Below, in pieces: positions 20,924 through 62,138 of a stretch of 64,000 bases of DNA (within the stretch, counting starts at the first letter, position 1; each line of letters opens with the position of its first letter). The stretch comes from an uncultured Prevotella sp. (lineage in GTDB: Bacteria > Bacteroidota > Bacteroidia > Bacteroidales > Bacteroidaceae). Under the pieces are notes generated by a model. It was not told the origin of the DNA, did no database searches, and was given only the letters and a program-made list of their open reading frames with translations. The DNA lies in NCBI GenBank assembly GCA_964554115.1, contig CAZKMT010000002.1, positions 26,629-90,628 of the forward strand. The letters run 5' to 3'. Both the position numbers and the translations under genes were made by a program.

Positions 20924-21493
20924 TTTGCTTGTCGTTGATTAAGTTTGTTTTCAGACAGATGCAAAGGTAGTGTTTTTCGCCCACAACGGCAAATTCTAAG
21001 AAACTGTTTTGAATTTTTTGTTCAATGGTTTGAGATGTATTTTCGAGGTATCTTAGATTATTATTTGAGTAAGTTTAGTGGGCTAAACATTGAAAATAAT
21101 AATTAGAAATGGCCGAAAAGACGCTCAAAGCATGAACAAAGAGCCGGGAAGCTCCATTGTAATACAATTCATGCAGAAATTCAAAGACAGTTTCTTAATC
21201 CATTTATCACGCATACCCGCTGCCGGCTTGCCACAAGCCGGCAGTGCCTGCGCCGTAAGGATGAAAGAGACCGACAGGGAATGGCGATGGATAAGTCCGT
21301 GACAGCCACGACACAACCCGCGGACTGCATTCTCAAAACACACTGCCGCCAACGTAACGCAGACACCTTTCCTAACGCGCCGCGACTGGCTGTTGTGCAC
21401 GACAGCCGTCTTTATTGGTTAAATATAGTTAAGTCATCACACTATGTCTATTTATTTTTTACATACAAATCACTATATTCTGCCTTTTATAAC

Positions 21494-21501
21494 TACCTTT
21501 G
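21494..21501 (+). promoter_or_regulatory. -7 promoter element in an AT-rich tract, probable promoter of the surface-protein operon
   Basis: TACCTTTG within very AT-rich 21418-21545, ~320 nt before ATG 21820. Confidence 0.55.
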
Positions 21502-21819
21502 TACGCATGGCATGACAATATTTATTATATATATAAAATATTGGCTAACCGGAATAAGGATGATGCGGCACGGCTGTTTGCACATGAAGCCCTGGCATAA
21601 GCAAGTGACGGATGCAACGGCCAACCCTGACAGGAAGATGTGAGTTGTCACAGACGAAACGCACAAAGTGCTCTTTTTACGACTGACGGAAGCCTAAATG
21701 GTCACCCGCACAGGCGGAGTGACACAGCTTTTTGCCGTGCGTTGGCACGTCGCATCGCCGTGCGCGCAGACGACCGGCCGCCCATGAGGGAAACATACAA
21801 TCATATAAAATTACATACA

Positions 21820-24800
21820 ATGAAGAAAACATTTATCTTTACGTTGATGGCATCGGCCATGGTGGGTGCCGTCATTGCAGGAAACAACCGACCGGCCGAC
21901 ACGGCCACAGCGTTTCCAAGTGGCAACGGCGCGGAAAGCGCACAGACAACGCCGCTCGCCCTTGCTGACGGCACCGCCGACTCGCTGAGCGCGGTGCTCA
22001 CCGACGGGTCGCTGCCGCTCACCTTCCACAACGACGACACATATCCCTGGACAGTGGAAGACGGGTACATACAAAACGGGAACTACAACGTGAGAAACTC
22101 CGCCTCGGAGTTTTCCGCCACGTTCACCATCGAAAAGGCATCGAAATTCTCGTTTGACATGTACGTACACCGCAGCGACAATTCCACGAGCAGCAATACC
22201 TACCACTACCTGTACTTCTACATCAACGGCAAACAATACCTGTCGCAAAACAATCAGACGGACTGGGGTCGCACGTGTGTACTTCTGGAACCGGGCACAT
22301 ACACCCTCAACTGGGTGGACACCATCTCCAACTCATCAAACACCTACTACAGCCAAATTCGCAACATGGAGCTGTCGTCAGACTGGTTGGACGTGGAGCT
22401 GGCTTCACCCGGCACGCTCGGAGTGGAGGTGCTCTACAAGGTGGACGTGCTCACCGACGTGGAACTGCTCAAGGTCAAGGGCACACTTAACTCCACCGAC
22501 TGGACGAACCTAAAGCAGATGAGCAACCTCGTGGGCCTGGACCTCTCGGAAGCCTCGTTCGACGAAGTGCCCGAGTACGCATTCGACGGTCTGAACTACC
22601 TGTCGGGCGTGAAGCTGCCCGAGGGCATGACGTCCATCGGGCAGTATGCTTTCCGCAATACGCAGATATTAAACATCGAGATTCCTGCCTCCGTAACCTC
22701 CATCGGGCAATACGCCTTTGCAGGCACGCGCCTTGCCGGAATAACCTTTGCCGAAGGCTCCCGGCTCACCACCATAGGTTACAGTGCATTCAGAGAATGC
22801 TCCTCGCTTGAAGAATTTATAATGCCGAACACGGTGACAACATTGCAAACTTCTTCAAGCAGCTCATATACTTTCTATAACTGCACTTCGCTAAAGAAGC
22901 TGCATTTCTCCGATGCCTTGAAGACAATAAACCAAAACACTTGCTACGCATGCACCGCCCTTGAAGACTTGCACCTGCCCGACAGTCTCGAAACCATAAA
23001 TGCTTATGCTTTCTACAATACAACGTCGCTCCGCAAGGTGGACTTCCCGGAGACATTGCGGACAATAGAGTACAATGCGTTCGAATATTGCGGGGTTGAT
23101 TCCGTCAAACTGCCTGTAAAATTATCGTCTTTGGGTAATAATGCTTTTTATCGTTGCACTAACCTCAAATACGTGGAACTGCCGTCATACATAGAAAGCT
23201 ATAATTACAATTTCAGTAACTGCACAGCCATAGACAAGGTAGTGTGCCGCTCGGCAACGCCTCCGTCGGTCTCTAACGACCCGTTCAATGGCCTGTCAAA
23301 GAGCAACGCCACGCTCGTGGTGCCATCGTTCGCCGTTGTCAACTACAAGCTCGACACATACTGGTATCAGTTCGGCTCCATTGAGGAGGGCGACGACATC
23401 GACTACTGGAAGATAGCCGCCGCGCTGTCGCTCACCAACAACCGCCGCATGGAAGGCAAGCCCGACGTGGATCTCTACTTCGGAGGGCAGTTCACCGTGG
23501 GTGGCAACGCGCCGATGGAGACGGCACAGTTCAACATCTACATAAACGAATCCAACCCCGGACGACTGCTCAACGACTGCCCCGACTTCACGGCCGACAG
23601 CATCAACACCTACTATTCGGTCAGCGCCAACCAATGGTACTTCCTTACTCCCCTCCACGACGTAGACCTCTCGAAAGTGTCGCACAGCGCAGACGCCTCG
23701 TATGTGTTCCGTTACTATGACGGCGACAGCCGCGCCACCAACGGCACGGGCAACAGCTGGAAGAACGTGGAAGACGGATGGCTGCGCGCCGGGCAGGGGT
23801 ACATATTCCAGTGCAACGCCGCCGGCACCTTGACCCTGCCCGCCGAAGCCGAAGCCCATGCGCAAGTAGTGAACACTGAAGACGTGACCACGGCCCTCGC
23901 CACCCACGAGGCCACCTCATCGGCCAACAGGAGCTGGAACTACGTTGGCAATCCCTACCCCGCCTACTATGACGTATATTACATGGACTTCACCGCCCCC
24001 ATCACGGTGTGGACGGGCAGCACTTACAAGGCGTACTCCATCGTTGACGATAACTTCGTGCTGCGCCCCATGCAGCCGTTCTTCGTTCAGAAGCCGGATG
24101 CAGTCGACAACATAGTGTTCCACAAAGAGGGCAGACAGCTCACCTCTGAGGTGCAACGGGCATCGTATACCAAGAAGCTCGCAGCCGCAAGCTCCGACCG
24201 ACACATATTTAATATAACGATAAGCGGCGACGATGGACTGACCGACGAGACCCGTGTGGTGGTGAACGCCGATGCCGACAATGGCTATGAGATAGAACGC
24301 GATGCCGCCAAGTTCATGAGCATGGAGGAGGGCGTACCGCAAATATTCACCACCGACGCACAAGGCAACAGCTACGCCATCAACGAGAGACCGCTGGCCG
24401 ACGGCCGCGTGGCAGTGGGCTACAGCGCGGGCAACGCCGGCTTCTACACCATCAGCGCAACGCGCGCCGACGGCACGGTGACACTCACAGACGGTCTGCT
24501 CGGCAAGAGCGTCGACCTAACGTCGCAAGACTACACGTTCTACACCAACGCCACCGCCGGCACCAACCTGTCGCGTTTCTCCATCGTGATTGGAGTGAAC
24601 AGTTCGGAGACCACCGGCATAGACTCCGCCACAGACAACAACGCCGTGAGCGTGACCGGCGCGGCAGGGCGCATCGACATATCGGCTCACCACGGAGCTT
24701 CCGTAGCCATCTATGCGGCTGACGGCCGATGTGCCTACAGGGGCAGCATCGACGGCACGTCGTCAAGCATTGCCCTGCCCAAAGGCCTGTACATCGTGAA

Positions 24801-24837
24801 CGTCGATGGACACGTGGGTAAGACATTCGTTTATTAA
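21820..24837 (+). CDS. BspA-like (TpLRR) leucine-rich-repeat surface protein with T9SS CTD
   Basis: Signal peptide; repeats like LPEGMTSIGQYAF, IPASVTSIGQYAF, FPETLRTIEYNAF; SWNYVGNPY module; CTD ...LPKGLYIVNVDG. Confidence 0.88.
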   Translation: MKKTFIFTLMASAMVGAVIAGNNRPADTATAFPSGNGAESAQTTPLALADGTADSLSAVLTDGSLPLTFHNDDTYPWTVEDGYIQNGNYNVRNSASEFSATFTIEKASKFSFDMYVHRSDNSTSSNTYHYLYFYINGKQYLSQNNQTDWGRTCVLLEPGTYTLNWVDTISNSSNTYYSQIRNMELSSDWLDVELASPGTLGVEVLYKVDVLTDVELLKVKGTLNSTDWTNLKQMSNLVGLDLSEASFDEVPEYAFDGLNYLSGVKLPEGMTSIGQYAFRNTQILNIEIPASVTSIGQYAFAGTRLAGITFAEGSRLTTIGYSAFRECSSLEEFIMPNTVTTLQTSSSSSYTFYNCTSLKKLHFSDALKTINQNTCYACTALEDLHLPDSLETINAYAFYNTTSLRKVDFPETLRTIEYNAFEYCGVDSVKLPVKLSSLGNNAFYRCTNLKYVELPSYIESYNYNFSNCTAIDKVVCRSATPPSVSNDPFNGLSKSNATLVVPSFAVVNYKLDTYWYQFGSIEEGDDIDYWKIAAALSLTNNRRMEGKPDVDLYFGGQFTVGGNAPMETAQFNIYINESNPGRLLNDCPDFTADSINTYYSVSANQWYFLTPLHDVDLSKVSHSADASYVFRYYDGDSRATNGTGNSWKNVEDGWLRAGQGYIFQCNAAGTLTLPAEAEAHAQVVNTEDVTTALATHEATSSANRSWNYVGNPYPAYYDVYYMDFTAPITVWTGSTYKAYSIVDDNFVLRPMQPFFVQKPDAVDNIVFHKEGRQLTSEVQRASYTKKLAAASSDRHIFNITISGDDGLTDETRVVVNADADNGYEIERDAAKFMSMEEGVPQIFTTDAQGNSYAINERPLADGRVAVGYSAGNAGFYTISATRADGTVTLTDGLLGKSVDLTSQDYTFYTNATAGTNLSRFSIVIGVNSSETTGIDSATDNNAVSVTGAAGRIDISAHHGASVAIYAADGRCAYRGSIDGTSSSIALPKGLYIVNVDGHVGKTFVY

Positions 24838-24855
24838 TCCATAAAATCTTTCGCC

Positions 24856-27800
24856 ATGAGAGGTTTCAGATACTTACTCCTCATGCTGGCACTGGCCGTC
24901 AGTGCCGGCATGAGGGGGCAATACAACCCGACGAACCCTGCCGAGCCGGGCGTGTACTACACGCTTACGCTGCAGGCAACGCCGGCCAACGGTGGCAGCT
25001 TCAACATAGGCACCACCACTACCTACTCCGAAGGCACGAGCGTGTCGCTGCGCGCATACACAAACTCCAACTTCAAGTTTGTGGCTTGGGAGCAGGACGG
25101 AGAGGTGGTGTCGACGTCAAGCTCGTTCACATACATCATGCCGGCCCGCAATGTGACGCTCGTGGCGTGCTACGTCTACGACCCATCAAGTCCGGCAGAG
25201 CCGCCCGAACCCGACATTCCAGTGTATTCGCGGCTCACTCTCTCGGCCTCGCCCGCCGCCGGCGGCTACTTCAACATTTCGAGCGGCAACAGCTACGAGG
25301 TAGGCTCGCAAGTGAGCCTGCGGGCATACAACAACTCCAACTTCATGTTCGTAAGCTGGACGGAGGACGGGGAAGTGGTGTCAACGTCAAGCTCTTTTAC
25401 GTATGAGGTAACCGAAGGCGACCACCACCTTGTGGCCAACTTCAGCTACTCGCCGTCAAGTCCGGGCGAGCCATCGGAACCGCAGGTGCTCCACACCCTG
25501 CAACTGCAAAGCTCACCCGCCGACGGCGGTTACTTCAACACGTCGAGCGGCAACTCTTATGCGTCGGGGACATCGGTGTATTTGCGGGCTTATTCCAACC
25601 AGTGGTACACGTTTGATAATTGGACATGCAACGGCGAGGTGGTGTCAACAGCCGCCAGCTTCTATTTCACCATGCCCGATGCCAACGTCACGCTCGTGGC
25701 CAACTTCACATACAACTACGACCCGAGCAATCCGAGTGAGCCGAGCGAACCGTCGAACGGCAATGTGAACATTTACGGAATGACGGAAAACGGCGCAAGG
25801 GGGCAGGCCATAGCCTATCCCATCTACCTTGAGAATCCGGTAGACATCACCGGCATGGCGGTAGACATACAGTTTCCGGATGGCTTCGCCGTGGACGCAG
25901 ACAACGTGCAGCTGGCCGGACGCGCCACCGGACACGAGATGACCGTCAGCGGCCTCGACTCCAACACATACCGCTTCGTGCTTCTCGGCACGACTAATTT
26001 CGACGGCAACAACGGGAAAGTGTTTGACGTGATGGTGACCATCCCAGACACGGCCACCACGAACCACAACTACCCCGTGACGCTTTCGCACGGCGTGGCA
26101 CACACCGTAGACGGCAACCAAGAAGCCGTGTCGGCGCGCAGCGGATATATATATGTGGAACAGCCGTCGGAAGACGGACTCTATGCGCGCTTCTCTTACG
26201 ACAAACTGTTGGGGAGGGTGCAGTTTACCAACCTGTCATCGGAAAAGGCACTGCGCTATGAGTGGGATTTCGGCGATGGCACCACGAGCACCGAAGACAG
26301 TCCGCTGCACACCTACGGCACGCCGGGCTATTATGACGTGACGCTGACGGCCTACGGAGAGTATGGCGAAGACGCGGCCACAACGACAGTGCTCATCAAC
26401 GACAGCGCGTATTGGACTGTCGGCGGAACATTCATACTTGCCAACGAGATGAGGGGCGTGCGCTACTTCGACACAGTCGATTCGCTGCTGGCCTTTGTGT
26501 CGGCAGCCACATTGGCCGACAACATCACGCTCATGGTGGAGGCGGAATCATCTTTCCCGCTCGCCATGACCGACACAAACAAGCACAGGCTGGCCGCCTT
26601 GGCTGAGGAAATGGCAACGCAATCGCTGTCGCTGAACATCTCGAAGACAGGCGAAGGTGCCAACCCGACGATAGCTTTCGGCGACAGCGGCGACGAACTG
26701 ACAGCGGAACATATCGAACTGTACAACAAACTGGGTGCATCGGCCACGTGCTACGGTGTCACGACCAAGCTGTGCGGCATCGAATACAACCCTGCCATGA
26801 TAAATGCCATTGCCGACCAGACCGTAAACTCGGGTGTGCCCACGGCGGAAATTGATTTCTCGCCCATCAGCAATGATCTCACTTTCGCATGGACACTGAC
26901 CACCACGCCCGATGAGGAAGCCGTGACGGGCTACAAAATGTCGGGCGAGGGAAACATACCGTCAATGACAATAGACAACATCGGCGAAGAGGATGCCGTG
27001 TTCACTTACATGATATCGGCATCCCATGACAGCCTGACATTCTGCGAGTTCAGCCGTTCAATAACGGTGAGGCCGGGCAGCGCGATACTGGAGCAGGCCG
27101 AGTGGGATCTGCTGAACACCCTGCGCGAGGTGCTCGTTGACGGCGGGTGGCAAGAGCCGTGGGACATGACATGCGGACCGGAAGGCGCATCCACACTGCG
27201 TGGCGTGACCGTGGAGCGTGGCCACGTGACGGGCATCGACCTCTCAAGTGAGAGCATCGGCGGAGGCTTCCCCACCGTGGCCCTGCAACTTCCACGCCTC
27301 GTCACACTGTCGATGGCCGACAACGACATGACCGGCGACGTGGCGAAAGACATATTGCAAGACATGACCATATACACCGCCGCCAACCCCGGATTCAAGT
27401 CAACGCTGCGCAGCATCGACATATCGGGCAACGACTTTACAGGCAACATAGGGTTGCTGTCCGCATTGTCGTCTGTATTCGCCGACCTTGAGGAACTGGT
27501 GGTGAGCGGCAACGCCGTATGCGAAGTGTCGCCGGCACTGCCGCCATCAATCACAAGGCTCGACCTGACGGGACAACGCACCGACAGCATGATAAGCGTA
27601 GACTTGGTGAACTTCGACTTCGAGGCCGTGGCGGCGCAGTTGCCGTCCATAATGCTTTATGACCACGGCGCACAGGCGTACATGGACACGCCAATGCTGA
27701 GACTCACCAACCGCCAGCCCGGAGAGACGGGAGCACAAGACGGCTATTGGGGCATGGACATCGATGCCACGACGGGAGAGCCCGTGCTTGCCGCCATAAG

Positions 27801-28587
27801 CACAAACGCCTACGAGGGACAAAGCGGCGACACGGTGTTCGTGTCGTATCCTTGCGCAGCAACTGAAGTGGCCGACTGCCATTGCCTTGCCACCATCAAC
27901 TTTGAGCCAGGCGATGCCAACTTCATCGGGGGCGTGACAGCCGCCGACCTTCAGGCAACCATACTCTACGCTTTCGGCGATTACACAGGCAGGCCATTCA
28001 ATCTGACAGCCGCCGACACGTACACCGATGGGACAATAAACGTGCAAGACGTGGTATGCACGGTTGACATACTCCTCTCCGCAACCTCGGGCGACAGCGA
28101 AACCATGCGAAATGTCCAAAAAACGAAAGTCGGTGCAACGACCTCTTCGGCCACCGAAGCCGATGCCTGCATCTACATAGACAACGGAAACGTGATTCTC
28201 AAATCGCCCGTCCCGGTGGCTGCAATCAGCGTCACTGCCTCCGGCAACATTTCATGGACGCTGGACAACTACGGCATGGCGCAGGCTTCGGCAGGCGCGA
28301 ACCTCGTGGGCTACTCACTGACGGGGCATACCATCCCGGCGGGAACTGCCGTGATAGGCTCATGCCGTGGCGAAGCCGCGATACGCAGCACCACGCTGGC
28401 CGATGTGCAAGCCATGCCAATAAGCGTCTCGGTTGGCGAATCCACGCCGACATCCATTGACGGCGTGCAGACAGAATACGGCGGATTGCGCATATTCAAC
28501 ATGAACGGAGTGGAAGTGAACGGTCTGCAAAAGGGTGTGAACATCATACGGAAAGACGGACGTTCCATAAAGGTGATAAACAAATAA
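24856..28587 (+). CDS. Multidomain T9SS surface protein: 3 InlB-B-like repeats, cohesin-like, PKD, LRR, dockerin-like, CTD
   Basis: Repeats flanked by YxPxxPxEP; PKD WDFGDG; LRR IDISGNDFTG; dockerin GDAN...ADTYTDGTINVQDV; CTD IFNMNG...KGVNIIR. Confidence 0.82.
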   Translation: MRGFRYLLLMLALAVSAGMRGQYNPTNPAEPGVYYTLTLQATPANGGSFNIGTTTTYSEGTSVSLRAYTNSNFKFVAWEQDGEVVSTSSSFTYIMPARNVTLVACYVYDPSSPAEPPEPDIPVYSRLTLSASPAAGGYFNISSGNSYEVGSQVSLRAYNNSNFMFVSWTEDGEVVSTSSSFTYEVTEGDHHLVANFSYSPSSPGEPSEPQVLHTLQLQSSPADGGYFNTSSGNSYASGTSVYLRAYSNQWYTFDNWTCNGEVVSTAASFYFTMPDANVTLVANFTYNYDPSNPSEPSEPSNGNVNIYGMTENGARGQAIAYPIYLENPVDITGMAVDIQFPDGFAVDADNVQLAGRATGHEMTVSGLDSNTYRFVLLGTTNFDGNNGKVFDVMVTIPDTATTNHNYPVTLSHGVAHTVDGNQEAVSARSGYIYVEQPSEDGLYARFSYDKLLGRVQFTNLSSEKALRYEWDFGDGTTSTEDSPLHTYGTPGYYDVTLTAYGEYGEDAATTTVLINDSAYWTVGGTFILANEMRGVRYFDTVDSLLAFVSAATLADNITLMVEAESSFPLAMTDTNKHRLAALAEEMATQSLSLNISKTGEGANPTIAFGDSGDELTAEHIELYNKLGASATCYGVTTKLCGIEYNPAMINAIADQTVNSGVPTAEIDFSPISNDLTFAWTLTTTPDEEAVTGYKMSGEGNIPSMTIDNIGEEDAVFTYMISASHDSLTFCEFSRSITVRPGSAILEQAEWDLLNTLREVLVDGGWQEPWDMTCGPEGASTLRGVTVERGHVTGIDLSSESIGGGFPTVALQLPRLVTLSMADNDMTGDVAKDILQDMTIYTAANPGFKSTLRSIDISGNDFTGNIGLLSALSSVFADLEELVVSGNAVCEVSPALPPSITRLDLTGQRTDSMISVDLVNFDFEAVAAQLPSIMLYDHGAQAYMDTPMLRLTNRQPGETGAQDGYWGMDIDATTGEPVLAAISTNAYEGQSGDTVFVSYPCAATEVADCHCLATINFEPGDANFIGGVTAADLQATILYAFGDYTGRPFNLTAADTYTDGTINVQDVVCTVDILLSATSGDSETMRNVQKTKVGATTSSATEADACIYIDNGNVILKSPVPVAAISVTASGNISWTLDNYGMAQASAGANLVGYSLTGHTIPAGTAVIGSCRGEAAIRSTTLADVQAMPISVSVGESTPTSIDGVQTEYGGLRIFNMNGVEVNGLQKGVNIIRKDGRSIKVINK

Positions 28588-28600
28588 ACCACAAAGCATT

Positions 28601-31600
28601 ATGCAAACAAGACTTTTGATGACAACGATATGCGCCATATCACTGAGCGTGATGGCAGCCTTTGCGCAGGGCAACACACTGTCTGTGCCCGACGTGTCGG
28701 TGGCGCAAGGCCGCACAATCGACTTGCCAATAAACATGGACAACACTTCCGACGTGGTGGCCGTGCAGTTCACGCTATTCGTTCCGGAGGGAATAACTAT
28801 CGACCCTTCGTCTGCCGCAGTGTCAGAACGTGCCGAAAGCCACACCGTGACAATGAAAAAGGTGGATGCCAACGAATACATGGCAATGGTGTTCTCGGCA
28901 GACAACAGCGTCATTACGGGACGCACGGGAAAGCTGATAACCGCCAAACTCACGGCTGCTACAGACATGTATGAAGGCACTGAGCTGCAGTTTGTGCTCA
29001 AGGACGTGATACTCAGCGCACGCGACGGGTCAAACATCGTCTCCGGATACAGTGCCGGCAAGATAACAATCACAAAAACAGCCGACCTCGAAGTATCGGA
29101 CGTGAAAGTCAATGCCACTTCCGTCACTCCCGGCGGCACACTGCCGGTGTCATGGCAGGTAAGCAATGTAGGGCAGGTGGCCACAGATGCCGGATGGAGC
29201 GAGCGGGTGTTCCTTGACGCTCCCAACGGGACATCTAAACTGATTGGCACAATATACTATACCGATATCTTGTCGGCAGGCGGCACCGTTAGCCGCTCTG
29301 CGGAGCTGACCGTGCCACAACAGTTGGGCATCAACGGCGAGGCGACCGTGAGGGTCAAGCTCTCTCCGGCCAGTGACACAGGCGAGCCCTCATGGATGCT
29401 GGCCAACAACGAAGCTTCGGCACCGACATCAATATCCGTGCGCAAGGAACTTGTGCTATCGCCGGAAACCATTCGTGTGGACGAAGAGGCGCAAACGGTG
29501 CGTTTCAAGCTCTCCAGGACGGGGAGCACCGCCTCAAAAGAAACATTCACCGTACAACCATCGACAGACAACAGGGTGACGCTGCCATCATCGGTAACCA
29601 TACCATCGGGACAGTCGAGCGCTTATTTCACAGCCTCCATCACACCGAACGCCGTCATCGACGCCGACTCTGTTGTGGCCGTGGCCATCTCGGGAGACGA
29701 CTATCCGACCGTGGAAGGACGCATAGTGATTGACGATGACACGAAGCCTGCGCTCTCCTTGTCGTCAGAAGCGCAAGATGTCACCGAGGGCGGAAGCCTG
29801 ACGCTCACCATATCCACACAAAAAGCAGTAAGTGAAAACACCGAGATACTGCTGTCGTGCGACTATCCGACACGCTTCAGCCTGCCCTCATCGGTAGTAA
29901 TCCAGGAGGGCAGTGCAAGCGTGGAAGCCACGGTAAACGCCATCGACGATGACAATCCCGATGTGGAACAAGTGGTTACTTTCACCGTCTCTGCCGCAGG
30001 CTACGAGTCAGCATCCATGCTTACTACGCTCGTTGACAATGACATTCCCACGCTACAGATAGAGCTGGAGCCTTCCGCCATATCGGAATCGGCCGGCCCG
30101 ATAGCCGTTACGGCAAGGATATGGCGCACGGACAACACCGACCGCAAGGTGACAATAAACCTATACGATGACTCCGATGGTTGCATATATTACCTGTCGC
30201 AGTCTGTCGAGATGGCCGCCGGACAGACTGAGGTCACTGTGAACCTGGGGCCCATCGACAATAACGACGTTGACGGCGAACGCACATACAACGTCTCAGC
30301 CGCCGTCTACATAGCGTCGTGCAGTTGCAACGCCGGCGGCGGCACGGCAGGGGGAGCGGTCAGTGCGCCGCTTACCGTATATGACGATGATGGCCCCGCC
30401 CTCGCCTTGGCAGCATCATCGTCAGCCATTGGCGAGGGTGGCGAACTGACAGTGACCGTAAGCCGCAATACTGACACGTCATCGCCTCTTGACGTTGCTT
30501 TCGTAAGTGACCACGATGACGGCATCGACTATCCCCGGTCAATTACCATACCCGCAGGCCAATCATCGGCATCCGTGGCAGTAAGCGCAGTCAACAACGC
30601 GGTAACGGGCGATGGGTTCGTGGCCACGTTAACCGCATCGGCCGAGGGGCACTCCAAAGCTACCGTGATGTTCTCTGTAAGCGACAAGACGCTTCCTGAC
30701 GCACAGATTACATCTTTTGACGTTGCGGAAAACGAAGTTGAGGCCGGCGGCACTGTCACTGTAACGCTGACATTGGCAAACACAGGCTCTTACGAACTTC
30801 CGGAGATGACAAAGACAGGCATATATGTAAACTCTGAAACAACGCCTACAGCCGTCATCTACCTCCAGTCGCCACTCGCGGCCGGACAGTCCGTACAGCT
30901 CAACCGTGAGATAACGCTGCCCTCGTCCGTCGGAACGCACCGTATCTACGCCGTCGCAAACGATGGGCATGGCGTAAACGAACTCCTTTATACCAACAAC
31001 AATTCTACCGTGGCGCAAGTGCAGGCATTGTCGCCGTTTGCAGCAACGGCCTCCACCGACAAGGCTGTCTACGAAAAAGGTGAGGAAGTGCATATATCAG
31101 GCAGTATAAGCGGCGGAGATGTGGCTGACAAGAGTGTCGAAGTTTACGTCATAAATGATGGCTACCGCCACACAATCAACACAACAACCGATGCAAACGG
31201 TGCCTTTGCCGTTGCCTACACACCATTTGCCGCACAAGTCGGACACTTCGATGTGGGTGCATGTTATCCCGGCGAAGGCACGACTGATGCCCTATGCTCG
31301 TTCGACATCTACGGCATGGAGCTCGCCAACACGGGTTACGTCACTGTGGAAACCGTGCCGGGCGAGCCTTATTCCGGCACCATTAAAGTCACCAACCGTG
31401 GTAGATTGCCATTGACTGGCATCAGAGCCACTGTGACGGGACAGCCCGACAATTGCGACGTGCAACTGACATGCCCCGAGACAATCGGCGGTGGGCAGGA
31501 CTTTGCAATCGACTATGTGATTACCGGAAGCGAGCCAAGCGCGGGCACCGATTGGGAATTGATAACCCTCAACATAGAGTCGGCCGAAGCCCCGGCCATA

Positions 31601-34600
31601 GAAGCCACTGTCTATTATTATTGCCGCAGCCAAAGTGGAAAACTGCTTGCCGACGTGCAGAGCATAAACACCACCATGACAAAGGGGCAGACGCGCAACT
31701 ACCCAATCACCATCACCAACATAGGCAAGGGTGAAACGGGAACCATCACCGTGACGCTGCCCGATGGCGGATGGATGAAGACGGCAACGCCTGTGGAGAT
31801 GCCATCGCTCGCAACCGGCGAGACGGCAACGGTGACACTCCTTTTGACTCCCACAGAGAGCCAGTCGCTCAACGTGCCAGTCACGGGCAGGCTCGGCATC
31901 AACTGCGCCAACGGGGATGGCATTCCCATCCAATTCTGCATCACACCGGTGTCTGAGGCCACAGGCACATTGGTTGTCGATGCATGCGATGAGTGGACAT
32001 ACAACACCACCAACGGCCCGCACGTGGCCGGTGCGGAAGTCACCGTAAAGGATGTCAGCACCGGAGCCGTGGTGACGAGCGGCGCCACGGACGCCGATGG
32101 CCTATTCACCGTAGAGCTGCCCGAAGGCTATTACGCCCTCAGCGTGACGGCCGACAAGCACGACTCTTACTCCAACAACATCCTCGTAGACCCCGGCACA
32201 ACTACGCGAGAGGTGGCACTCCTCAGCTATCAGGCCATACAGATAGGCTATGAGCTGGTAGAGACAGAGATATCCGATGAATACATCATTGAAAACATCG
32301 TGACATTCGAAACCAATGTGCCAAAGCCCGTGGTGGTGATTGACGGCCCAAGCAGCATCGACGGCGAAGCGATGGCCGATGGCGAGCAGGCCGTGCTCTA
32401 CTTCACGTTGACAAACCACGGCCTCGTCCGCTCCGACAATGTTCGCTTCTATTTGCCCGAGCCAACCGACGAGTGGCTCTTCGAAGCCCTCGACTACACG
32501 GAGTCGTTCTCTCTCGGCCCCAACCAGAGCGTAACCATTCCCGTGCTCCTCACTCACTATCCCGCATCCTCGCATTCATCTTTAAAGGCTTCAGGGCAGG
32601 CCACGTTACAGGTTAACGTAATGGAGGCGTGCATGGCTCACATAGAAGCGTTGTACGAAGTGATTTGCGGCACGCGCCTATATGACAATGAGGCTGCCCA
32701 CCGCATGTCAATGAAAGCCTGTGCCACATCGGCCATAATGAATGCCATCGGGCAGGGACTCTCCGGAGTCATAAGCGGCGGTTCGGGCGGCGGTGGTGGA
32801 GGCAATGGCGGGCCGACAAGCCCGACATCTCCGACAAACAACAAAGTTGATCCCGAAGATGTTCAACATCCGATAGAATCCACCAACGAAACCACATTCT
32901 GCGATTCATGTTACACCCAGTTAATGGAGAACCACCTGAACCAAATCATTGACCATGTGCCTATACTGGGAGCCTTAAACAGTCTGTTAGACGCCATGTA
33001 CGAGCACACCAGGTATGGCACATCGTGGGGTGAGCTTCTGGCCAGATACATTATTGAAAACTATGAGGACTTCTTCCCCGATGAAGAGCCGGAAGACCTT
33101 CTCGGACTGCTCAATAGCCATCTCAACGACCTCATCGGTGACTTGAGAACCTTAGCAGAAAACATGGAGAATTACGAGGAATGCCTGCGGTCGCGAAACG
33201 GGGAGCAGGCCGATGTGCAGCGTTACGCCGGCGAAACGGGCAACAGTTGGATAAACGCGCTTGCCGATGCAGCCGCGTCGTTCAGCGAAGAGGCGGAAAC
33301 GCTACAGGTCATGATGCAAGAACTGTGCGGCGACTCCGTATGGTTAACAAGCTCTGATGCCTCCATGCATAATTTCTGGCAGGCCGTAAGCGAGGCGGAT
33401 GCCGACGCTCCGCTCAATGCTGACACGCTCATGTCCGTCAAGCCAGAATCTGTCACGGAGGCACAGTTGCGCGCACTCGTAGAGCGGCTCAACGGTACTT
33501 CGCCCGACAACGTGCCCGACGACGAGCTGTTGCAGACCTGCGCCGACAGGATAACGGAGATAGAGACAGCGGCCATCGAAGCTGGTTATGAGTCGATGGA
33601 GGACAAGTTCTACAGTGCTTACGACAACTTCAACGCAAGGGGCGAAGAGGAGTCAAGCTCCGTGTGCTCGTCAATCACGCTGCGTTTCGAGCAGCGCATG
33701 GTCATGACGCGCCAGGCTTTCCGCGGCACGCTCACGGTCTACAACGGAAACACAGACACCCCCATGACCGATGTGGTGCTGTCATTGCGCGTAAGTGACA
33801 CCGATGGTGCCATAGCCACGTCGCACGAGTTCCAGATAAGCCTTGAGACGCTCAACGGGTTCTCCGGCGATGCCGCGCTCGGAAGCGCATGGCAATTGGA
33901 TGCCGAAGCCAGCGGTTGCGCCACAATCCTCTACATCCCCACCAAGTATGCCGCGCCCACTGAGGCCAAGGAATACGTGTTCAGTGGCACGCTCTCTTAT
34001 GTTGACCCATACAGCGGACAGGCCGTTACGCGCGACATCTATCCCATAACGCTCACCGTCAAGCCGTCGCCCAACCTCAACTTGACGTATTTCATGCAGC
34101 GCGACGTGATGGGCGACGACCCGCTCACCGAAGAGATAGAGCCGAGCGAGGATGCCGAGTTTGCCTTGCTCATAAACAATGTGGGCTATGGCGATGCCAA
34201 CAACGTGCAGATAGTGACCAACCAGCCTGAGATAATAGACAATGAGAAAGGCCTGCTCATCGACTTCGAGCTTGTGAGCAGCCAGCTCAACGGAGGCGAC
34301 AAGGTGTTGGCGTTGGGCGGCAGCGTGGCCACCGACTTCGGCGACATAGCTGCCGGAAGCCAGGTCTACGCCCAATGGTGGCTACGAAGCTCGTTGCTGG
34401 GGCACTTCACCGACTATGATGTCAGCGTCACCCACGTCACGAGCTACGGCAACCCCGACCTGTCTCTGCTCAATGAGGTTACCGTCCACGAACTCATACG
34501 CAGCCTTGAGGCTGGCGATGGCGACCTCGTGGGCTTCATGACCAACGACATAGAAGACATCAACGACTATCCCGACATGCTCTACCTCTCCGATGGCAGC

Positions 34601-36715
34601 GTAGAGACTGTGGCCGCAGTCGGCTCATCGTCCATCGCCAAGGTGTCCGACACGGAATATACGCTCACTGTCAGTCCGTCGTCCCTTGGGTGGAACTACG
34701 GCAACATCACCGACCCCACCTATGGACTGTCCGAACTCGTGGCGGTGACGCGCAACAGCGATGGCAAGACCGTAAGCCTGCGCAATTTCTGGCAGACCGA
34801 CCGCACACTGCGCGACGGCAAGGATCCGCTTTACGAAAACCGCCTCCACTTTGCCGACGACTTCGGGAGCCTCACACCCCAGACCTACACGCTTACGTTT
34901 GAGCCTGCGCCGACCCTCGTGCTCGCCGTGGCCTCGATAGACGGCGTACCCTCCGGCGTGGCGTTCGAGCCTGTGGCCTATGTAGACGTGATGTTCAACA
35001 AAACCATCGCCCCCGCCACATTCACCACTGACGACATAACCATATCCGTCGAGGGCGTGCGGCAGGACGTTTCAACGGTAGACATCTCAACCGATGACAA
35101 CAAGACGTTCAGGCTCGACCTATCGCGCTTCAACGACACTGTCGGCAATGGCTACTATACCCTCACGGTGCAGACGGCAAACATAACCGACGCCGAAGGC
35201 TTCAATGGCAGCAGTGGCAAGTCGGTGGGCTGGTCGCTCTTCCTCGGTGGATTTGTAAGGCTCTCAACGGATGTAACGCCGGCCGAGGCCGGCACAATTA
35301 TGACAGCCGCCGGGGCTTCCGCCACTGCCCTGTCAGAGCCGGCACAGGCGGAGAGCGAGGCCGAGTATGGCTCCACCGTCACGCTCATGGCAGTGCCCGC
35401 AGAGGGCTACGCTTTCTCTTACTGGACCGTCAATGACGTGGAAGTTGACTCCGGAGCAACAATCACCAATGTCGTCATCGGCGACATGGACGTGGTGGCA
35501 AACTTCGTGCCCACACAGCATACCGTGACGATTACATCATCCGATGGCGGAGGCACCGTGACCGGCGACTATGGCGGCATTTATCAATATGGCGAACAGC
35601 TATCGTTCACGGCCATGCCGGATGCCGACCATGCCTTTGTCTGCTGGACCGTCAACGGCGACACCGTGGACAATGCCACCGACACGCTTGCCGTGACCGT
35701 AAACGCCGACATGTACATAGACGCCTCGTTTGTGCGCCGGGTGTACAGCCAGCGGCTGTCGCTTTTCCAAGGCTGGAACTGGATATCATCCTATTTATCC
35801 GAGCCTCTGGCCACCGACGCTTTCACGTATGCCTCGCGCATATTAGGACGCGCAGACAATGGAGCGACAGATGCCGGCGGCATCGACCTCGACACAGACT
35901 CGCTGACTCCCGGCTGCGGCTATAAGGTTGAGGCCACACTGCCTTTCGTACTGTCGTTCAGTGGCACCATGTATGATGCAACTGCCGCGCCCATCGTTGT
36001 GGCGGCGGGCTGGAACTGGTTGCCGTGCCCATATTCCGAGGCCGCCACGCTGTCGTCGGCCATCGTCAATGCCGACGATGGCGATGTCATCGCATCGCAG
36101 GCCGGCTTCGCCGAGTATGACGGGGGCACGTGGACGGGCACGATCTCAACTCTTGAGCCGGGCAGTGCCTATCTCTACAAGTCTGCAACAGACAAGACCC
36201 TTGAGTTCAGCAGTGCCCCAACGGCACCCCTGCCGGGCGGCGGCACGTCGGCACCCCAGGCTTACATGCGCCAGTATCCCGCAACAATGAACATTACGGC
36301 GTGTCTCTACCGCAACGATGCGCCGCTTGAGGGCGATGGTTTCAGCATAACCGCCATGGTTGACGGCGAGCAGCGCGGAGTGAGCCAAGCCATCGACGGC
36401 AAGCATTACATCACGGTCTATGGCGACGCGCCGGCCACAGTGTCGTTCGTGATAGAGGATGTGGCCACCGGCGAGACGTTCACCTCCGCCACTATGCCCG
36501 CTTTCTGCGACGACGTACTGGGCTGCATCGCATCTCCCTATGCCATAAGCATTGGCGAAGCAACATCAATCGCCGATGCCATCGGCAGCGGGCGCAAGGT
36601 AAGGGTGTACACCATCCAAGGCTTGCTCGTCACATCTGAGGCCACTCGCGAGACTCTCGAGCGGCTGCCGCGTGGTGTCTATATCATCGACAACCGCAAA
36701 TACGTGGTGAAATAG
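28601..36715 (+). CDS. 2704-aa T9SS surface protein: cohesin-like N-terminus, CARDB and Ig-like domains, carboxypeptidase-regulatory-like domain, helical insert, InlB-B-like repeats, CTD
   Basis: Signal peptide AAFA|Q; LPINMDNTSDVVAVQFTL; ADLEVSDV...VSWQVSNVG; YAVANDG...ELLYTNN; CTD VYTIQG...LPRGVYIIDNRKYVVK. Confidence 0.82.
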   Translation: MQTRLLMTTICAISLSVMAAFAQGNTLSVPDVSVAQGRTIDLPINMDNTSDVVAVQFTLFVPEGITIDPSSAAVSERAESHTVTMKKVDANEYMAMVFSADNSVITGRTGKLITAKLTAATDMYEGTELQFVLKDVILSARDGSNIVSGYSAGKITITKTADLEVSDVKVNATSVTPGGTLPVSWQVSNVGQVATDAGWSERVFLDAPNGTSKLIGTIYYTDILSAGGTVSRSAELTVPQQLGINGEATVRVKLSPASDTGEPSWMLANNEASAPTSISVRKELVLSPETIRVDEEAQTVRFKLSRTGSTASKETFTVQPSTDNRVTLPSSVTIPSGQSSAYFTASITPNAVIDADSVVAVAISGDDYPTVEGRIVIDDDTKPALSLSSEAQDVTEGGSLTLTISTQKAVSENTEILLSCDYPTRFSLPSSVVIQEGSASVEATVNAIDDDNPDVEQVVTFTVSAAGYESASMLTTLVDNDIPTLQIELEPSAISESAGPIAVTARIWRTDNTDRKVTINLYDDSDGCIYYLSQSVEMAAGQTEVTVNLGPIDNNDVDGERTYNVSAAVYIASCSCNAGGGTAGGAVSAPLTVYDDDGPALALAASSSAIGEGGELTVTVSRNTDTSSPLDVAFVSDHDDGIDYPRSITIPAGQSSASVAVSAVNNAVTGDGFVATLTASAEGHSKATVMFSVSDKTLPDAQITSFDVAENEVEAGGTVTVTLTLANTGSYELPEMTKTGIYVNSETTPTAVIYLQSPLAAGQSVQLNREITLPSSVGTHRIYAVANDGHGVNELLYTNNNSTVAQVQALSPFAATASTDKAVYEKGEEVHISGSISGGDVADKSVEVYVINDGYRHTINTTTDANGAFAVAYTPFAAQVGHFDVGACYPGEGTTDALCSFDIYGMELANTGYVTVETVPGEPYSGTIKVTNRGRLPLTGIRATVTGQPDNCDVQLTCPETIGGGQDFAIDYVITGSEPSAGTDWELITLNIESAEAPAIEATVYYYCRSQSGKLLADVQSINTTMTKGQTRNYPITITNIGKGETGTITVTLPDGGWMKTATPVEMPSLATGETATVTLLLTPTESQSLNVPVTGRLGINCANGDGIPIQFCITPVSEATGTLVVDACDEWTYNTTNGPHVAGAEVTVKDVSTGAVVTSGATDADGLFTVELPEGYYALSVTADKHDSYSNNILVDPGTTTREVALLSYQAIQIGYELVETEISDEYIIENIVTFETNVPKPVVVIDGPSSIDGEAMADGEQAVLYFTLTNHGLVRSDNVRFYLPEPTDEWLFEALDYTESFSLGPNQSVTIPVLLTHYPASSHSSLKASGQATLQVNVMEACMAHIEALYEVICGTRLYDNEAAHRMSMKACATSAIMNAIGQGLSGVISGGSGGGGGGNGGPTSPTSPTNNKVDPEDVQHPIESTNETTFCDSCYTQLMENHLNQIIDHVPILGALNSLLDAMYEHTRYGTSWGELLARYIIENYEDFFPDEEPEDLLGLLNSHLNDLIGDLRTLAENMENYEECLRSRNGEQADVQRYAGETGNSWINALADAAASFSEEAETLQVMMQELCGDSVWLTSSDASMHNFWQAVSEADADAPLNADTLMSVKPESVTEAQLRALVERLNGTSPDNVPDDELLQTCADRITEIETAAIEAGYESMEDKFYSAYDNFNARGEEESSSVCSSITLRFEQRMVMTRQAFRGTLTVYNGNTDTPMTDVVLSLRVSDTDGAIATSHEFQISLETLNGFSGDAALGSAWQLDAEASGCATILYIPTKYAAPTEAKEYVFSGTLSYVDPYSGQAVTRDIYPITLTVKPSPNLNLTYFMQRDVMGDDPLTEEIEPSEDAEFALLINNVGYGDANNVQIVTNQPEIIDNEKGLLIDFELVSSQLNGGDKVLALGGSVATDFGDIAAGSQVYAQWWLRSSLLGHFTDYDVSVTHVTSYGNPDLSLLNEVTVHELIRSLEAGDGDLVGFMTNDIEDINDYPDMLYLSDGSVETVAAVGSSSIAKVSDTEYTLTVSPSSLGWNYGNITDPTYGLSELVAVTRNSDGKTVSLRNFWQTDRTLRDGKDPLYENRLHFADDFGSLTPQTYTLTFEPAPTLVLAVASIDGVPSGVAFEPVAYVDVMFNKTIAPATFTTDDITISVEGVRQDVSTVDISTDDNKTFRLDLSRFNDTVGNGYYTLTVQTANITDAEGFNGSSGKSVGWSLFLGGFVRLSTDVTPAEAGTIMTAAGASATALSEPAQAESEAEYGSTVTLMAVPAEGYAFSYWTVNDVEVDSGATITNVVIGDMDVVANFVPTQHTVTITSSDGGGTVTGDYGGIYQYGEQLSFTAMPDADHAFVCWTVNGDTVDNATDTLAVTVNADMYIDASFVRRVYSQRLSLFQGWNWISSYLSEPLATDAFTYASRILGRADNGATDAGGIDLDTDSLTPGCGYKVEATLPFVLSFSGTMYDATAAPIVVAAGWNWLPCPYSEAATLSSAIVNADDGDVIASQAGFAEYDGGTWTGTISTLEPGSAYLYKSATDKTLEFSSAPTAPLPGGGTSAPQAYMRQYPATMNITACLYRNDAPLEGDGFSITAMVDGEQRGVSQAIDGKHYITVYGDAPATVSFVIEDVATGETFTSATMPAFCDDVLGCIASPYAISIGEATSIADAIGSGRKVRVYTIQGLLVTSEATRETLERLPRGVYIIDNRKYVVK

Positions 36716-36734
36716 TCTGCGCCACCGCGCATTG

Positions 36735-36778
36735 AGGCCGACCCAAAATATCTTTTGTGGTCGGCCTTTTTAGTTTTT
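36735..36778 (+). terminator. Intrinsic terminator closing the three-gene surface-protein operon
   Basis: AGGCCGACC-CAAAA-TATC-TTTTG-T-GGTCGGCCT then TTTTAGTTTTT. Confidence 0.88.
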
Positions 36779-37026
36779 GCGTCGGCAAATGACAGCCCAC
36801 TCCGCAACATCTACGTCTTCCGAGCATGTCGCGACCCAATCGCCACGAACGAAAGCGACCGGGCTCATTGCCCGACATGCAAAGGACACCTCTTTTGCAA
36901 AAGTATTATAATTTGTTGGATTTATAGGCGACTGCCTTGAACCGTTATGCGCGAATTCCGCTAACTTTGCACGCTGAATGACCTCCGAAGTCTCTGTGGA
37001 GGCCATGCGAAAAGACTTAATACATA

Positions 37027-59707: not shown

Positions 59708-59799
59708 AATGTCTTTAATGATTAAGTTGATTTTAATTATTTGGAATTAAGATGTGCCCGGAAGCTACCCGCAAGTAATTTCCCGGGCACATCTGAAAG

Positions 59800-60279: not shown

Positions 60280-60311
60280 GTCTATTTAGTTTATCCGTTG
60301 TTAGCAATTGA

Positions 60312-62123: not shown

Positions 62124-62138
62124 GATAACAATTGTAAA

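Follow-up and report, generated by a model that had tools for sequence, protein, structure and literature searches.

Cohesin and dockerin modules in a putative operon of three predicted type IX-secreted surface proteins with no recognisable enzyme

Three adjacent genes of an uncultured Prevotella sp., here called P1, P2, and P3, encode large proteins with predicted export signals, and two of the three carry modules of the cohesin and dockerin families. Homologues of P2 and P3 occur in many gut Bacteroidales, where a dockerin-bearing gene directly precedes a gene whose product starts with a cohesin. On the basis of sequence comparisons, we consider it likely, though well short of certain, that the dockerin of P2 plugs into the N-terminal cohesin of P3 and that the two proteins form a non-enzymatic assembly for adhesion or recognition on the cell surface.

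The genes and their flanking elements lie as follows in the window, the whole 64-kb stretch of DNA that was analysed.

21494..21540, + strand: promoter-like element (consensus scan plus inspection of the sequence; candidate only)
21820..24837, + strand: P1, 1005 aa (Pfam and family profile against PDB)
24856..28587, + strand: P2, 1243 aa (Pfam; profile against PDB)
28601..36715, + strand: P3, 2704 aa (Pfam)
36734..36780, + strand: intrinsic terminator, 15-pair hairpin plus UUUUUAGUUUUU (-34.2 kcal/mol)

The intergenic gaps are 18 nt (P1-P2) and 13 nt (P2-P3). The ATG start of P1 at 21820 is internal to a longer GTG ORF that begins at 21640. The promoter-like element is consensus-like only, with TTTG at 21498-21501 and ATGACA-16-TAAAAT at 21512-21539, and a leader of ~280 nt lies between it and the P1 start; no Rfam family was found in this leader or elsewhere in the window. 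The terminator hairpin (36734-36768) and its U-run gave z = -5.05, and none of 200 shuffled sequences folded equally well. The original prediction of three co-oriented genes with these short gaps and a strong terminator downstream agrees with the coordinates in the ORF list and with the shuffling result. P1, P2, and P3 are probably co-transcribed as a single unit. The window also encodes a GH43 protein and a SusC/SusD pair, 7 and 24 kb away, respectively, on the opposite strand.

P1 is a BspA-type LRR protein. Its features are listed below.

aa 1-20: signal peptide (judged by eye, cleavage after VIA)
aa 60-249: N domain, no assigned family
aa 250-560: BspA-type LRR_5 (Pfam LRR_5, E 1.1e-53)
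aa 561-932: C domain, no assigned family
aa 933-1005: long T9SS-type CTD, 73 aa (Pfam DUF6383)

The assignment is based on the LRR_5 repeats and on the family profile, which matched only BspA-type LRR structures in the PDB (4fs7 at 7.5e-87). Neither a cohesin nor a dockerin was detected in P1, and the gene accompanies the P2-P3 pair in closer relatives only. A possible kinship between P1 residues 561-932 and the C-terminal region of P3, suggested by a WN..NPY-like motif in both, was dropped since the BLASTP similarity was not significant.

The docking modules are confined to P2 and P3, which have one cohesin each.

P2 signal peptide: judged by eye, cleavage before QYNP
25762..26166 (aa 303-437), + strand: P2 internal cohesin (AF2, Foldseek, profile against PDB)
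aa 516-744: P2 middle region, no assigned family
27088..27855 (aa 745-1000), + strand: P2 LRR region (profile against PDB: plant LRR receptors, E 5e-33)
27910..28080 (aa 1019-1075), + strand: P2 dockerin (Dockerin_1 family matches, PDB profile)
28453..28584, + strand: P2 short CTD, 44 aa (cleavage between PT and SI; B, IFNMNG; D, GVNII (GxN); E, KVINK)
P3 signal peptide: judged by eye, cleavage before QGN
about 28670..29080 (aa 24-160), + strand: P3 N-terminal cohesin (homology to P2-family cohesin; proposed socket)
aa 1320-1684: P3 variable Gly-rich and helical insert, no assigned family
33653..35305 (aa 1685-2235), + strand: P3 most conserved block, all-beta, about five sandwich domains (AF2 pLDDT 80)
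36566..36712, + strand: P3 short CTD, 49 aa (cleavage between AT and SI; VYTIQG, GVYII, RKYVVK)

From N to C terminus, P2 consists of the signal peptide, three InlB-B-like repeats, the cohesin, a PKD domain, the middle region, plant-type LRRs, the dockerin, and the short CTD. Its profile matched only LRR and PKD structures in the PDB beyond the cohesin and dockerin modules, and it has more than 1247 homologues. The first half of P3 comprises the signal peptide, the N-terminal cohesin, and a chain of CARDB, Calx-like, and Ig-like domains; the insert, the five-sandwich block, two InlB-B-like repeats, a C-terminal region, and the short CTD make up the rest. P3 has more than 1216 homologues, with lengths of about 2650-2770 aa, and at E<=1e-30 the family has 1855 representative clusters at 50% identity (>1,200 at 90%).

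The identity of the cohesins was assessed by structure prediction and by family profiles. An AF2 model of P2 residues 296-445 (pLDDT 92.8, pTM 0.85, 10 strands) shows the nine-stranded beta-sandwich jelly-roll fold of cohesins (Pfam PF00963). A Foldseek search of the PDB with this model returned cohesins for all of the best 50 matches (TM 0.59-0.81), led by 2xdh (E 5.7e-10), instead of the generic Ig or CBM folds that the original prediction had named as evidence against itself. The cohesin family profile matched only cohesins in the PDB, including all of the top seven (best 1.2e-5), and 9 of 34 aligned homologues matched Pfam Cohesin (best 2.5e-8). Family profiles were needed for this: neither cohesin-like domain of the window matched PF00963 when searched singly, and single-sequence PDB searches with both segments gave no match. 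The N terminus of P3 is related to the P2-family cohesin by phmmer (down to 1e-14) and by the P2-family HMM (1.3e-35, with the same P3 segment among the 34 sequences of that HMM). Pfam Cohesin was matched by some P3 homologues, and 88 of 125 full-length representatives of the P3 family have a cohesin at the start. A third cohesin-like match, at P3 aa 1022-1115, was weak (E 2e-4) and overlaps Pfam NPCBM_assoc; it was not counted.

Searched alone, the P2 dockerin segment scored 19.1 bits against Dockerin_1 (PF00404; cutoff, 22.9), and 14.5 bits within the whole protein. Thirty of 37 family members matched Dockerin_1 (best E 2.3e-15), and the top PDB matches of the family profile were dockerins; a single-sequence PDB search gave only a marginal match (2y3n_B, E 0.068). 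Dockerin calcium loops have ligands at positions 1, 3, 5, 9, and 12, with a helix after each loop. Loop 1 of P2, DANFIGGVTAAD, is degenerate, with positions 1, 3, and 12 kept, I at position 5, and T at position 9, where 61 of 66 family sequences have D or N. Loop 2, DTYTDGTINVQD, is described as intact, with positions 1, 5, 9, and 12 kept. P2-type dockerins form a subfamily of their own, PFNFTAA[DN]..INVQDVV. Both the cohesin-like domains and the dockerin-like pair had been proposed from the sequence, and the Pfam matches of homologues, the PDB profiles, and, for the P2 cohesin, the AF2 model all bear the proposal out.

These module data also bear on a reading in which the modules serve a structural role only, as beta-sandwich spacers and a calcium-stabilised helical hinge, and do not bind each other, so that the operon would encode three independent T9SS adhesins behind a shared promoter. 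It would fit the degenerate loop 1, the scores of the window's own modules below the Pfam thresholds, the presence of a CTD on each protein, and the many non-cellulosomal cohesin and dockerin modules without a known partner (Peer 2009, as cited in PMC6487960). The specific retention of the cohesin fold in the P2 model speaks against it, as does the arrangement of related loci described below, and we regard it as unlikely.

Signal peptides of all three proteins were judged by eye, and the CTDs by comparison with published motifs. In Prevotella intermedia, the type A CTD occupies the C-terminal 40-82 residues and has a cleavage motif followed by motifs B (G, Y), D (GxY/GxN plus Ile), and E (basic) (PMC11969387). 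Read by eye and with no HMM, the C termini of P1 (73 aa), P2 (44 aa), and P3 (49 aa) fit these motifs and the short and long types of that study. Only P1 passed Pfam DUF6383 (26.4 bits; cutoff, 23.7). TIGR04183 (Por_Secre_tail; cutoff, 23) was reached by neither P1 (13.3 bits) nor the P3 family (12.9-15.8 bits, E 0.01-0.08) and was not matched by P2-family CTDs; the short CTDs of P2 and P3 were not recognised by Pfam or NCBIfam HMMs. No T9SS components were found among the window ORFs scanned. The by-eye reading of the N termini, the published motifs, and DUF6383 for P1 are consistent with the claim that each protein has a signal peptide and a CTD. All three products would leave the cell through Sec followed by the type IX secretion system; their CTDs would presumably be removed and the proteins attached to the outer surface.

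Pfam, NCBIfam, and profile searches against the PDB detected no enzyme family in P1, P2, or P3, in line with the original description of proteins that have no recognisable enzyme and carry LRR, PKD, CARDB, and InlB-B-like modules, all of which Pfam detected. The P3 profile gave nothing significant in the PDB and only a weak CARDB-like match. A metalloenzyme hidden in the conserved P3 block was considered because of invariant H, E, and D residues ('HELIRS') and rejected: the block models as five beta-sandwiches, and its Foldseek matches, at TM <= 0.17, were generic chains of Ig-like domains (integrin legs, pilins, cadherin) with no enzyme fold among them. Going by this absence of matches, the proteins would be non-catalytic; the ~1,200 residues without family assignment in P1-P3 (P1 60-249 and 561-932, P2 516-744, P3 1320-1684) could hide an activity. 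Those residues leave some room for a cryptic, cellulosome-like degradative complex, with a new enzyme in an unassigned region or with glycoside hydrolases or peptidases that dock through dockerins of their own, and dockerin-linked enzymes do occur in rumen Bacteroidetes (PMC6487960). The GH43 and SusC/SusD genes among the window neighbours would suit such a complex, but their distance and strand do not. The three proteins, the Pfam lists of 240 homologues, and the loci examined showed neither CAZyme nor peptidase domains, and the best-conserved part of P3 is Ig-like throughout. We consider a degradative complex very improbable.

The main argument for P2-P3 pairing comes from gene order. The LRR region of P2 opens a C-terminal LRR-dockerin-CTD module that is kept upstream of P3-like genes across loci. 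An LRR-dockerin-CTD gene lies directly upstream of a P3-like gene with a starting cohesin in 54 of 54 Bacteroidales loci, a count subject to ascertainment bias since these loci were collected via the dockerin gene; the same pair was present in five loci (from two proteins) found independently from the P3 side. Nearly all gaps between the two genes are between -4 and 58 nt. The loci come from Prevotella, Paraprevotella, Bacteroidaceae, Paludibacteraceae, Muribaculaceae, and Phocaeicola MAGs, and the class of the dockerin tracks the class of the downstream cohesin. Literature searches for a description of this operon found none.

Other loci display the modules in further arrangements. The P3-like proteins of some lineages lack a CTD and terminate in a canonical dockerin, and at a subset of these loci a small cohesin-CTD protein is encoded by the gene that follows; loci L047 and L060 are examples of such a dockerin end with a cohesin in the next gene. 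This arrangement would have no evident purpose unless the modules bind, and it counts against a purely structural role. In L070, a 198-aa protein with a terminal dockerin is followed, 8 nt on, by a cohesin-first protein that passes the Pfam cutoff, and in L041, L043, and L030 dockerin and cohesin occur in tandem within one protein.

A further reading accepts functional modules and assigns them other partners: P2 and P3 would bind proteins encoded elsewhere, and the operon would comprise two separate small scaffolds. The internal cohesin of P2 has no dockerin partner within the 64-kb window, and related genomes encode CTD-less LRR-dockerin proteins (L039 18219-19637, L046 17721-20180, L065, and L066) that are possible outside partners. 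Dockerin-bearing enzymes are others; rumen Prevotella have been reported to encode dockerin-bearing proteins, including a C10 peptidase (PMC6487960). Unless the two are directly linked, however, it would be difficult to account for the strict adjacency of class-A dockerin and cohesin-first genes across Bacteroidales families; in addition, dockerin class co-varies with the cohesin class of the next gene. We give this reading a minor but appreciable chance, ahead of a purely structural role.

In the favoured P2-P3 assembly, P3 would be a stalk of ~2,700 residues, built of beta-sandwich domains, with its cohesin at the free N-terminal end. The P2 dockerin, just before the CTD, would fit this cohesin and so join a binding protein with LRR, PKD, and InlB-B domains to the stalk. 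The internal cohesin of P2 would in turn receive a dockerin protein from another locus of the genome, and P1 would be a co-expressed BspA-type LRR surface protein without a docking module. The scaffolded complex of three proteins originally envisaged is therefore retained in part: gene order argues for its P2-P3 portion, whereas P1 lacks modules and the P2 cohesin is partnerless in the window. Since each of P2 and P3 bears a CTD, both may already be surface-tied, which makes for an awkward geometry in which the membrane-proximal dockerin of P2 must meet the distal cohesin of P3. More tentatively, these loci may represent a general cohesin-dockerin system with which gut and rumen Bacteroidales construct non-enzymatic surface structures, the chain being laid down by gene order: the dockerin encoded by gene n would be the match for the cohesin that opens the product of gene n+1. 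We hold this broader scheme to be possible but doubtful. The giant proteins of some lineages that end in a dockerin and have no T9SS signal would then need a small cohesin-CTD partner for attachment and might cross the outer membrane pre-complexed, riding on the partner's CTD.

The two module families are those of the cellulosomes and amylosomes of Firmicutes (Acetivibrio thermocellus, Ruminococcus flavefaciens, and R. bromii). The P2 domain shares its fold with Firmicutes cohesins (PDB 1aoh, 1ohz, 2ccl, 5n5p, and 4uyp), and the dockerin of P2, its degenerate loop 1 aside, would share the duplicated calcium-loop-and-helix layout. In anchoring scaffoldins such as ScaE and SdbA, a surface-anchored cohesin holds a dockerin-ended protein, and the related loci with a small surface-anchored cohesin protein after a dockerin-ended protein follow the same logic. 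A cellulosome has dockerin-bearing CAZymes on a multi-cohesin scaffoldin; here, no enzyme domain was detected in the operon or its homologues, and the genes belong to a Gram-negative host. A T9SS CTD would serve as the anchor, in contrast to the SLH or sortase anchors of Firmicutes, cohesins number one or two per protein and do not form arrays, the P2-type dockerin precedes a CTD and belongs to its own subfamily, and pairing seems to be written in the gene order.

The best match to the P2 cohesin in both sequence and structure is 2xdh, an Archaeoglobus fulgidus cohesin; 2jh2 and 2vo8 are cohesin modules of Clostridium perfringens. Such non-cellulosomal modules likewise lie outside cellulose degradation (Peer et al. 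2009; 2xdh, 2jh2, and 2vo8), but they are single modules or parts of enzyme-toxin complexes in Gram-positives and archaea, whereas here a conserved operon of gut Bacteroidales encodes giant binding proteins with T9SS signals. BspA of Tannerella forsythia and the LRR cargo of Prevotella intermedia (PMC11969387) share with our proteins the signal peptide, the LRRs, and short or long CTDs with motifs B, D, and E. The literature examined describes neither a cohesin nor a dockerin in these oral proteins; P2, in contrast, is an LRR protein that bears a dockerin and adjoins the gene for a cohesin-tipped stalk. Fibrillar adhesins, which bear a binding domain at the tip of a long stalk of repeated Ig-like domains, resemble P3, a C-terminally anchored chain of beta-sandwich domains whose N-terminal extremity carries a distinctive domain. 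In P3 that tip is a cohesin, so the binding head would be contributed by a second, exchangeable protein.

The pairing of cohesins with dockerins is the textbook means of enzyme-complex assembly in Gram-positive fibre degraders. Here, these plug-and-socket modules belong to a large, so far unnamed family of proteins from gut and rumen Bacteroidales, in which they are combined with LRR and Ig-like binding domains and predicted T9SS anchors; no enzyme was detected. The conserved gene order suggests that gut Bacteroidales may join adhesins to one another on the cell surface in this way. Should the pairing be genuine, it would offer new orthogonal cohesin-dockerin pairs for protein engineering and raise the question of how CTD-less proteins are displayed by T9SS bacteria. 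Prevotella and its relatives would then have a means of mounting adhesin heads on long stalks and of exchanging them, with a bearing on colonisation, aggregation, and the recognition of hosts or glycans.

The original prediction described an operon of three co-oriented genes, P1, P2 and P3, and the same ORFs and gaps were found (18 nt between P1 and P2, 13 nt between P2 and P3). The features are as follows.

21498-21501 and 21512-21539: promoter-like site (TTTG, then ATGACA-16-TAAAAT), consensus level only
21541-21819: untranslated leader of ~280 nt, running from the promoter-like site to P1
21820-24837, + strand: P1, ORF of 1005 aa
24856-28587, + strand: P2, ORF of 1243 aa
28601-36715, + strand: P3, ORF of 2704 aa
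36734-36768: terminator hairpin of 15 pairs, then UUUUUAGUUUUU, folding at -34.2 kcal/mol

The terminator after P3 was as strong as claimed (z = -5.05; 0 of 200 shuffles folded equally well). The proposed upstream promoter-like element was present, but nothing beyond the consensus level was found for it. An Rfam search of the leader gave no match, and a terminator-like hairpin (21387-21408) lies just 5' of the promoter-like site and leader. Flanking genes have housekeeping functions (malate dehydrogenase, hexapeptide acetyltransferase, Cys/Met PLP enzyme, M23 peptidase and Obg), and the remainder of the window has ordinary Bacteroidales gene content. The malate dehydrogenase belongs to a cluster at 90% identity in which the members that bear names are Prevotella sp. 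and Prevotellaceae MAGs. A putative porin of 781 aa (Porin_10, Pfam E 1e-212) is encoded 9 kb upstream of the operon (10110-12455, + strand). A GH43 glycoside hydrolase (12783-14432) and a SusC/SusD-like pair (58799-63977) lie on the - strand, opposite to and distant from the operon.

Single-sequence PDB searches with the cohesin-like segments of P2 and P3 were empty. More than 1,247 P2 homologues were available, and we aligned 34 cohesin-like segments (alignment A1), including those of 32 diverse P2 homologues plus the P3 N-terminus. The top seven PDB matches of the A1 profile were cohesins only (2xdh, 1.2e-5; Ruminococcus flavefaciens 5n5p, 1.3e-4), and 9 of the 34 members matched Pfam Cohesin (best 2.5e-8). 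AlphaFold2 on A1 gave a model (pLDDT 92.8, pTM 0.85) whose best 50 Foldseek matches in the PDB were all cohesins (E down to 5.7e-10, TM 0.6-0.8), which argues against a generic Ig or CBM fold for the P2 domain. The cohesin-like start of P3 was also borne out: phmmer detected homology to the P2-type cohesin (down to 1e-14 against P2 homologues), the A1 HMM, which includes this same P3 segment among its 34 sequences, matched it at 1.3e-35, and a precomputed Pfam Cohesin match exists for some P3 homologues.

The dockerin-like pair of P2 was supported at the level of the family. Residues 1001-1090 of P2 and 36 homologues (alignment A2) share a duplicated loop-and-helix motif; 30 of the 37 matched Pfam Dockerin_1 (best 2.3e-15), and dockerins topped the PDB matches of the A2 profile (first 8ajy_B, 5.8e-5). 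The window's own segment, however, scored 19.1 bits against a Dockerin_1 cutoff of 22.9; its loop 2 is intact but loop 1 is degenerate, with I at ligand position 5 and T at position 9, where the family mostly has D, S or V and D or N, respectively. The A2 dockerins, all located just before a T9SS-type C-terminal domain (CTD), form a separate subfamily (class A; motif GDANF.G.VD..DLQ...PFNFTAA[DN]TY.D..INVQDVV); they share 41% identity on average with one another and 23-28% with canonical dockerins. An HMM scan found only a single dockerin and a pair of cohesins in the whole window.

The main new result is comparative evidence that a dockerin gene is followed by a cohesin gene. Scanning for the P2 family with one genome per species yielded 66 loci, and nearly all bear the label of a Bacteroidales MAG from gut or rumen. 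Seven had labels from other phyla (labels seen on L005, L008, L012, L013, L021 and L042, among others: Oscillospiraceae, Eggerthellaceae, Akkermansia, Roseburia, Lachnospiraceae or Flexilinea), and these contigs are most likely mis-binned. When ORFs of the loci were scored with local HMMs built from A1 and A2, an LRR-dockerin-CTD gene lay directly upstream of 54 of 54 P3-like genes starting with a cohesin (residues ~20-165), a count biased because the loci were found via the dockerin gene; nearly all gaps were -4 to 58 nt. The contigs of two P3 homologues were therefore taken independently. In both, the gene upstream (12 and 7 nt away, respectively) again encodes an LRR protein, of 1056 and 1098 aa, that carries a class-A dockerin (E 1e-34) and a short CTD of the GxN type. 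The class of a dockerin varies together with that of the cohesin in the following gene, and P1 homologues occur beside the pair in closer relatives only. At a threshold of E <= 1e-30 the large P3 family spans 1,855 representative clusters; among the best 150 representatives, 125 were full-length-like, with a cohesin at the start in 88 and a dockerin at the end in 8.

Only the LRR-dockerin-CTD C-terminal half of P2 appears from sequence comparison to be the widely conserved partner of P3. Its N-terminal half consists of InlB-B repeats, cohesin, PKD and a middle domain, and over residues 1-740 (window 24856-27075) P2 shares 57-58% identity with the beginning of CARDB-rich proteins (2,250 aa) from three of the closest Prevotella relatives; a fourth has a 2,166-aa protein with 50% identity over these residues (L003-L005 and L008, from 10001). 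The 2,250-aa proteins carry seven CARDB domains, and the CARDB-rich relatives have neither a dockerin nor a P3 neighbour. P2 has a mosaic make-up.

The same dockerin-then-cohesin order recurs in related loci with modules of other types. In L070, a 198-aa protein without a CTD has a canonical dockerin at its end (Pfam 35.9 bits); 8 nt downstream is a 601-aa protein with a cohesin start (Pfam 31.3 bits, cutoff 24.1) and a CTD end. The P3-like proteins of L045-L049, L056 and L060 lack a CTD and have a canonical dockerin at their C-terminus (55 bits for L047). These giants start with a signal peptide and then a cohesin (L047 11386-17607, L060 11252-17368) and pose the question of their route to the surface in a T9SS organism. 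The next gene in L060 encodes a small protein with signal peptide, N-terminal cohesin and CTD, as does that in L045 by eye. In L047 the next gene encodes a protein with a cohesin in its interior and a dockerin at its C-terminus, and a small cohesin-CTD protein comes after it, making three links in a row. Dockerin and cohesin occur in tandem within single P3-like proteins in L030, L041 and L043.

Many loci have a fourth gene (200-600 aa) directly after the P3 homologue (L009, L015, L017, L019, L022-L024 and L027), which shares homology with a segment of the C-terminal region of P3 (aa 2540-2670); the window has its terminator at this place. This small protein ends in a dockerin in L070 (13574-14167), L071 and L043.

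Each protein had been predicted to carry a signal peptide and a CTD. Signal peptides were assigned by eye, and Gln is the first mature residue at the predicted cuts of P2 (MRG/QYNP, window 24919) and P3 (AFA/QGN, window 28667), which would fit the pyroglutamate habit of Bacteroidota secreted proteins. TIGR04183 did not reach its threshold in P1 or the P3 family and gave no match in P2. In Prevotella intermedia, cargo CTDs have been established experimentally in two size classes, short (40-51 aa) and long (69-82 aa), with a PT/GI cleavage motif, motif B (G, Y), motif D (GxY, or GxN then Ile) and basic motif E (Ye et al. 2025, PMC11969387). Read by eye against these published motifs rather than by HMM, the C-terminus of P2 is a short CTD of 44 aa in the GxN subgroup (PT/SIDG...IFNMNG...KGVNII...KVINK), that of P3 a short CTD of 49 aa and that of P1 a long CTD of 73 aa.

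The predicted binding modules were seen with Pfam on single sequences: BspA-type LRR_5 (E 1e-53) and, alone among the three C-termini, DUF6383 in P1; three InlB-B-like repeats, PKD, weak LRR_4 and Dockerin_1 (E 0.042 only) in P2; and CARDB, NPCBM_assoc, CarboxypepD_reg and two InlB-B-like repeats in P3. These searches returned no Cohesin match and no enzyme, and NCBIfam added nothing further. Whole-family profiles against the PDB matched BspA-type LRR only (P1), LRR and PKD only (P2) or nothing significant (P3), and Pfam lists of 240 homologues held binding and Ig-like families only, in agreement with the predicted lack of a recognisable enzyme. Invariant H, E and D residues made the best-conserved block of P3 (aa 1685-2235) a suspected enzyme; this candidate was rejected, as the block modelled as ~5 beta-sandwiches (pLDDT 80) and matched only Ig-like strings (integrin legs, pilins, cadherins; TM <= 0.17). 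Searches gave no domain assignment for P1 60-249, P1 561-932, P2 516-744 and P3 1320-1684. The last (window 32558-33652) consists of a Gly-rich linker (SGGSGGGGGGNGG) and, after it, a helical stretch with conserved cysteines; it is a variable insert, absent in distant P3 homologues, and had neither a family nor a structure match.

Dockerin-bearing proteins are known in rumen Prevotella and Bacteroides (Bensoussan et al., PMC6487960), dockerins of cockroach-gut Bacteroidales are mentioned in passing (PMC10266427), and cohesins and dockerins outside cellulosomes have been described (Peer 2009, as cited in PMC6487960). In the literature covered, which mostly excluded subscription journals, we found no published description of the operon or of the dockerin-then-cohesin order.

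The observation behind the original prediction is confirmed, and its interpretation as a scaffolded complex is partly supported and extended: gene order in the loci and on the P3-side contigs favors it, but P1 has no docking module and the internal cohesin of P2 has no partner dockerin within the window. On the best reading of the sequences, the dockerin of P2 would dock into the cohesin that opens P3, with P1 as a putative co-expressed BspA-type LRR cargo. The degenerate loop 1 of the dockerin and the regions without a domain assignment are weak points of this reading. Because both partners carry their own CTD, the link may take several geometries: a loop formed on a single cell, a bridge from one cell to another or a pre-export assembly. 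The link would attach an LRR/PKD/InlB-B binding protein to a long stalk of Ig-like domains at the T9SS-decorated surface, and the product would be a non-enzymatic adhesion or recognition assembly.
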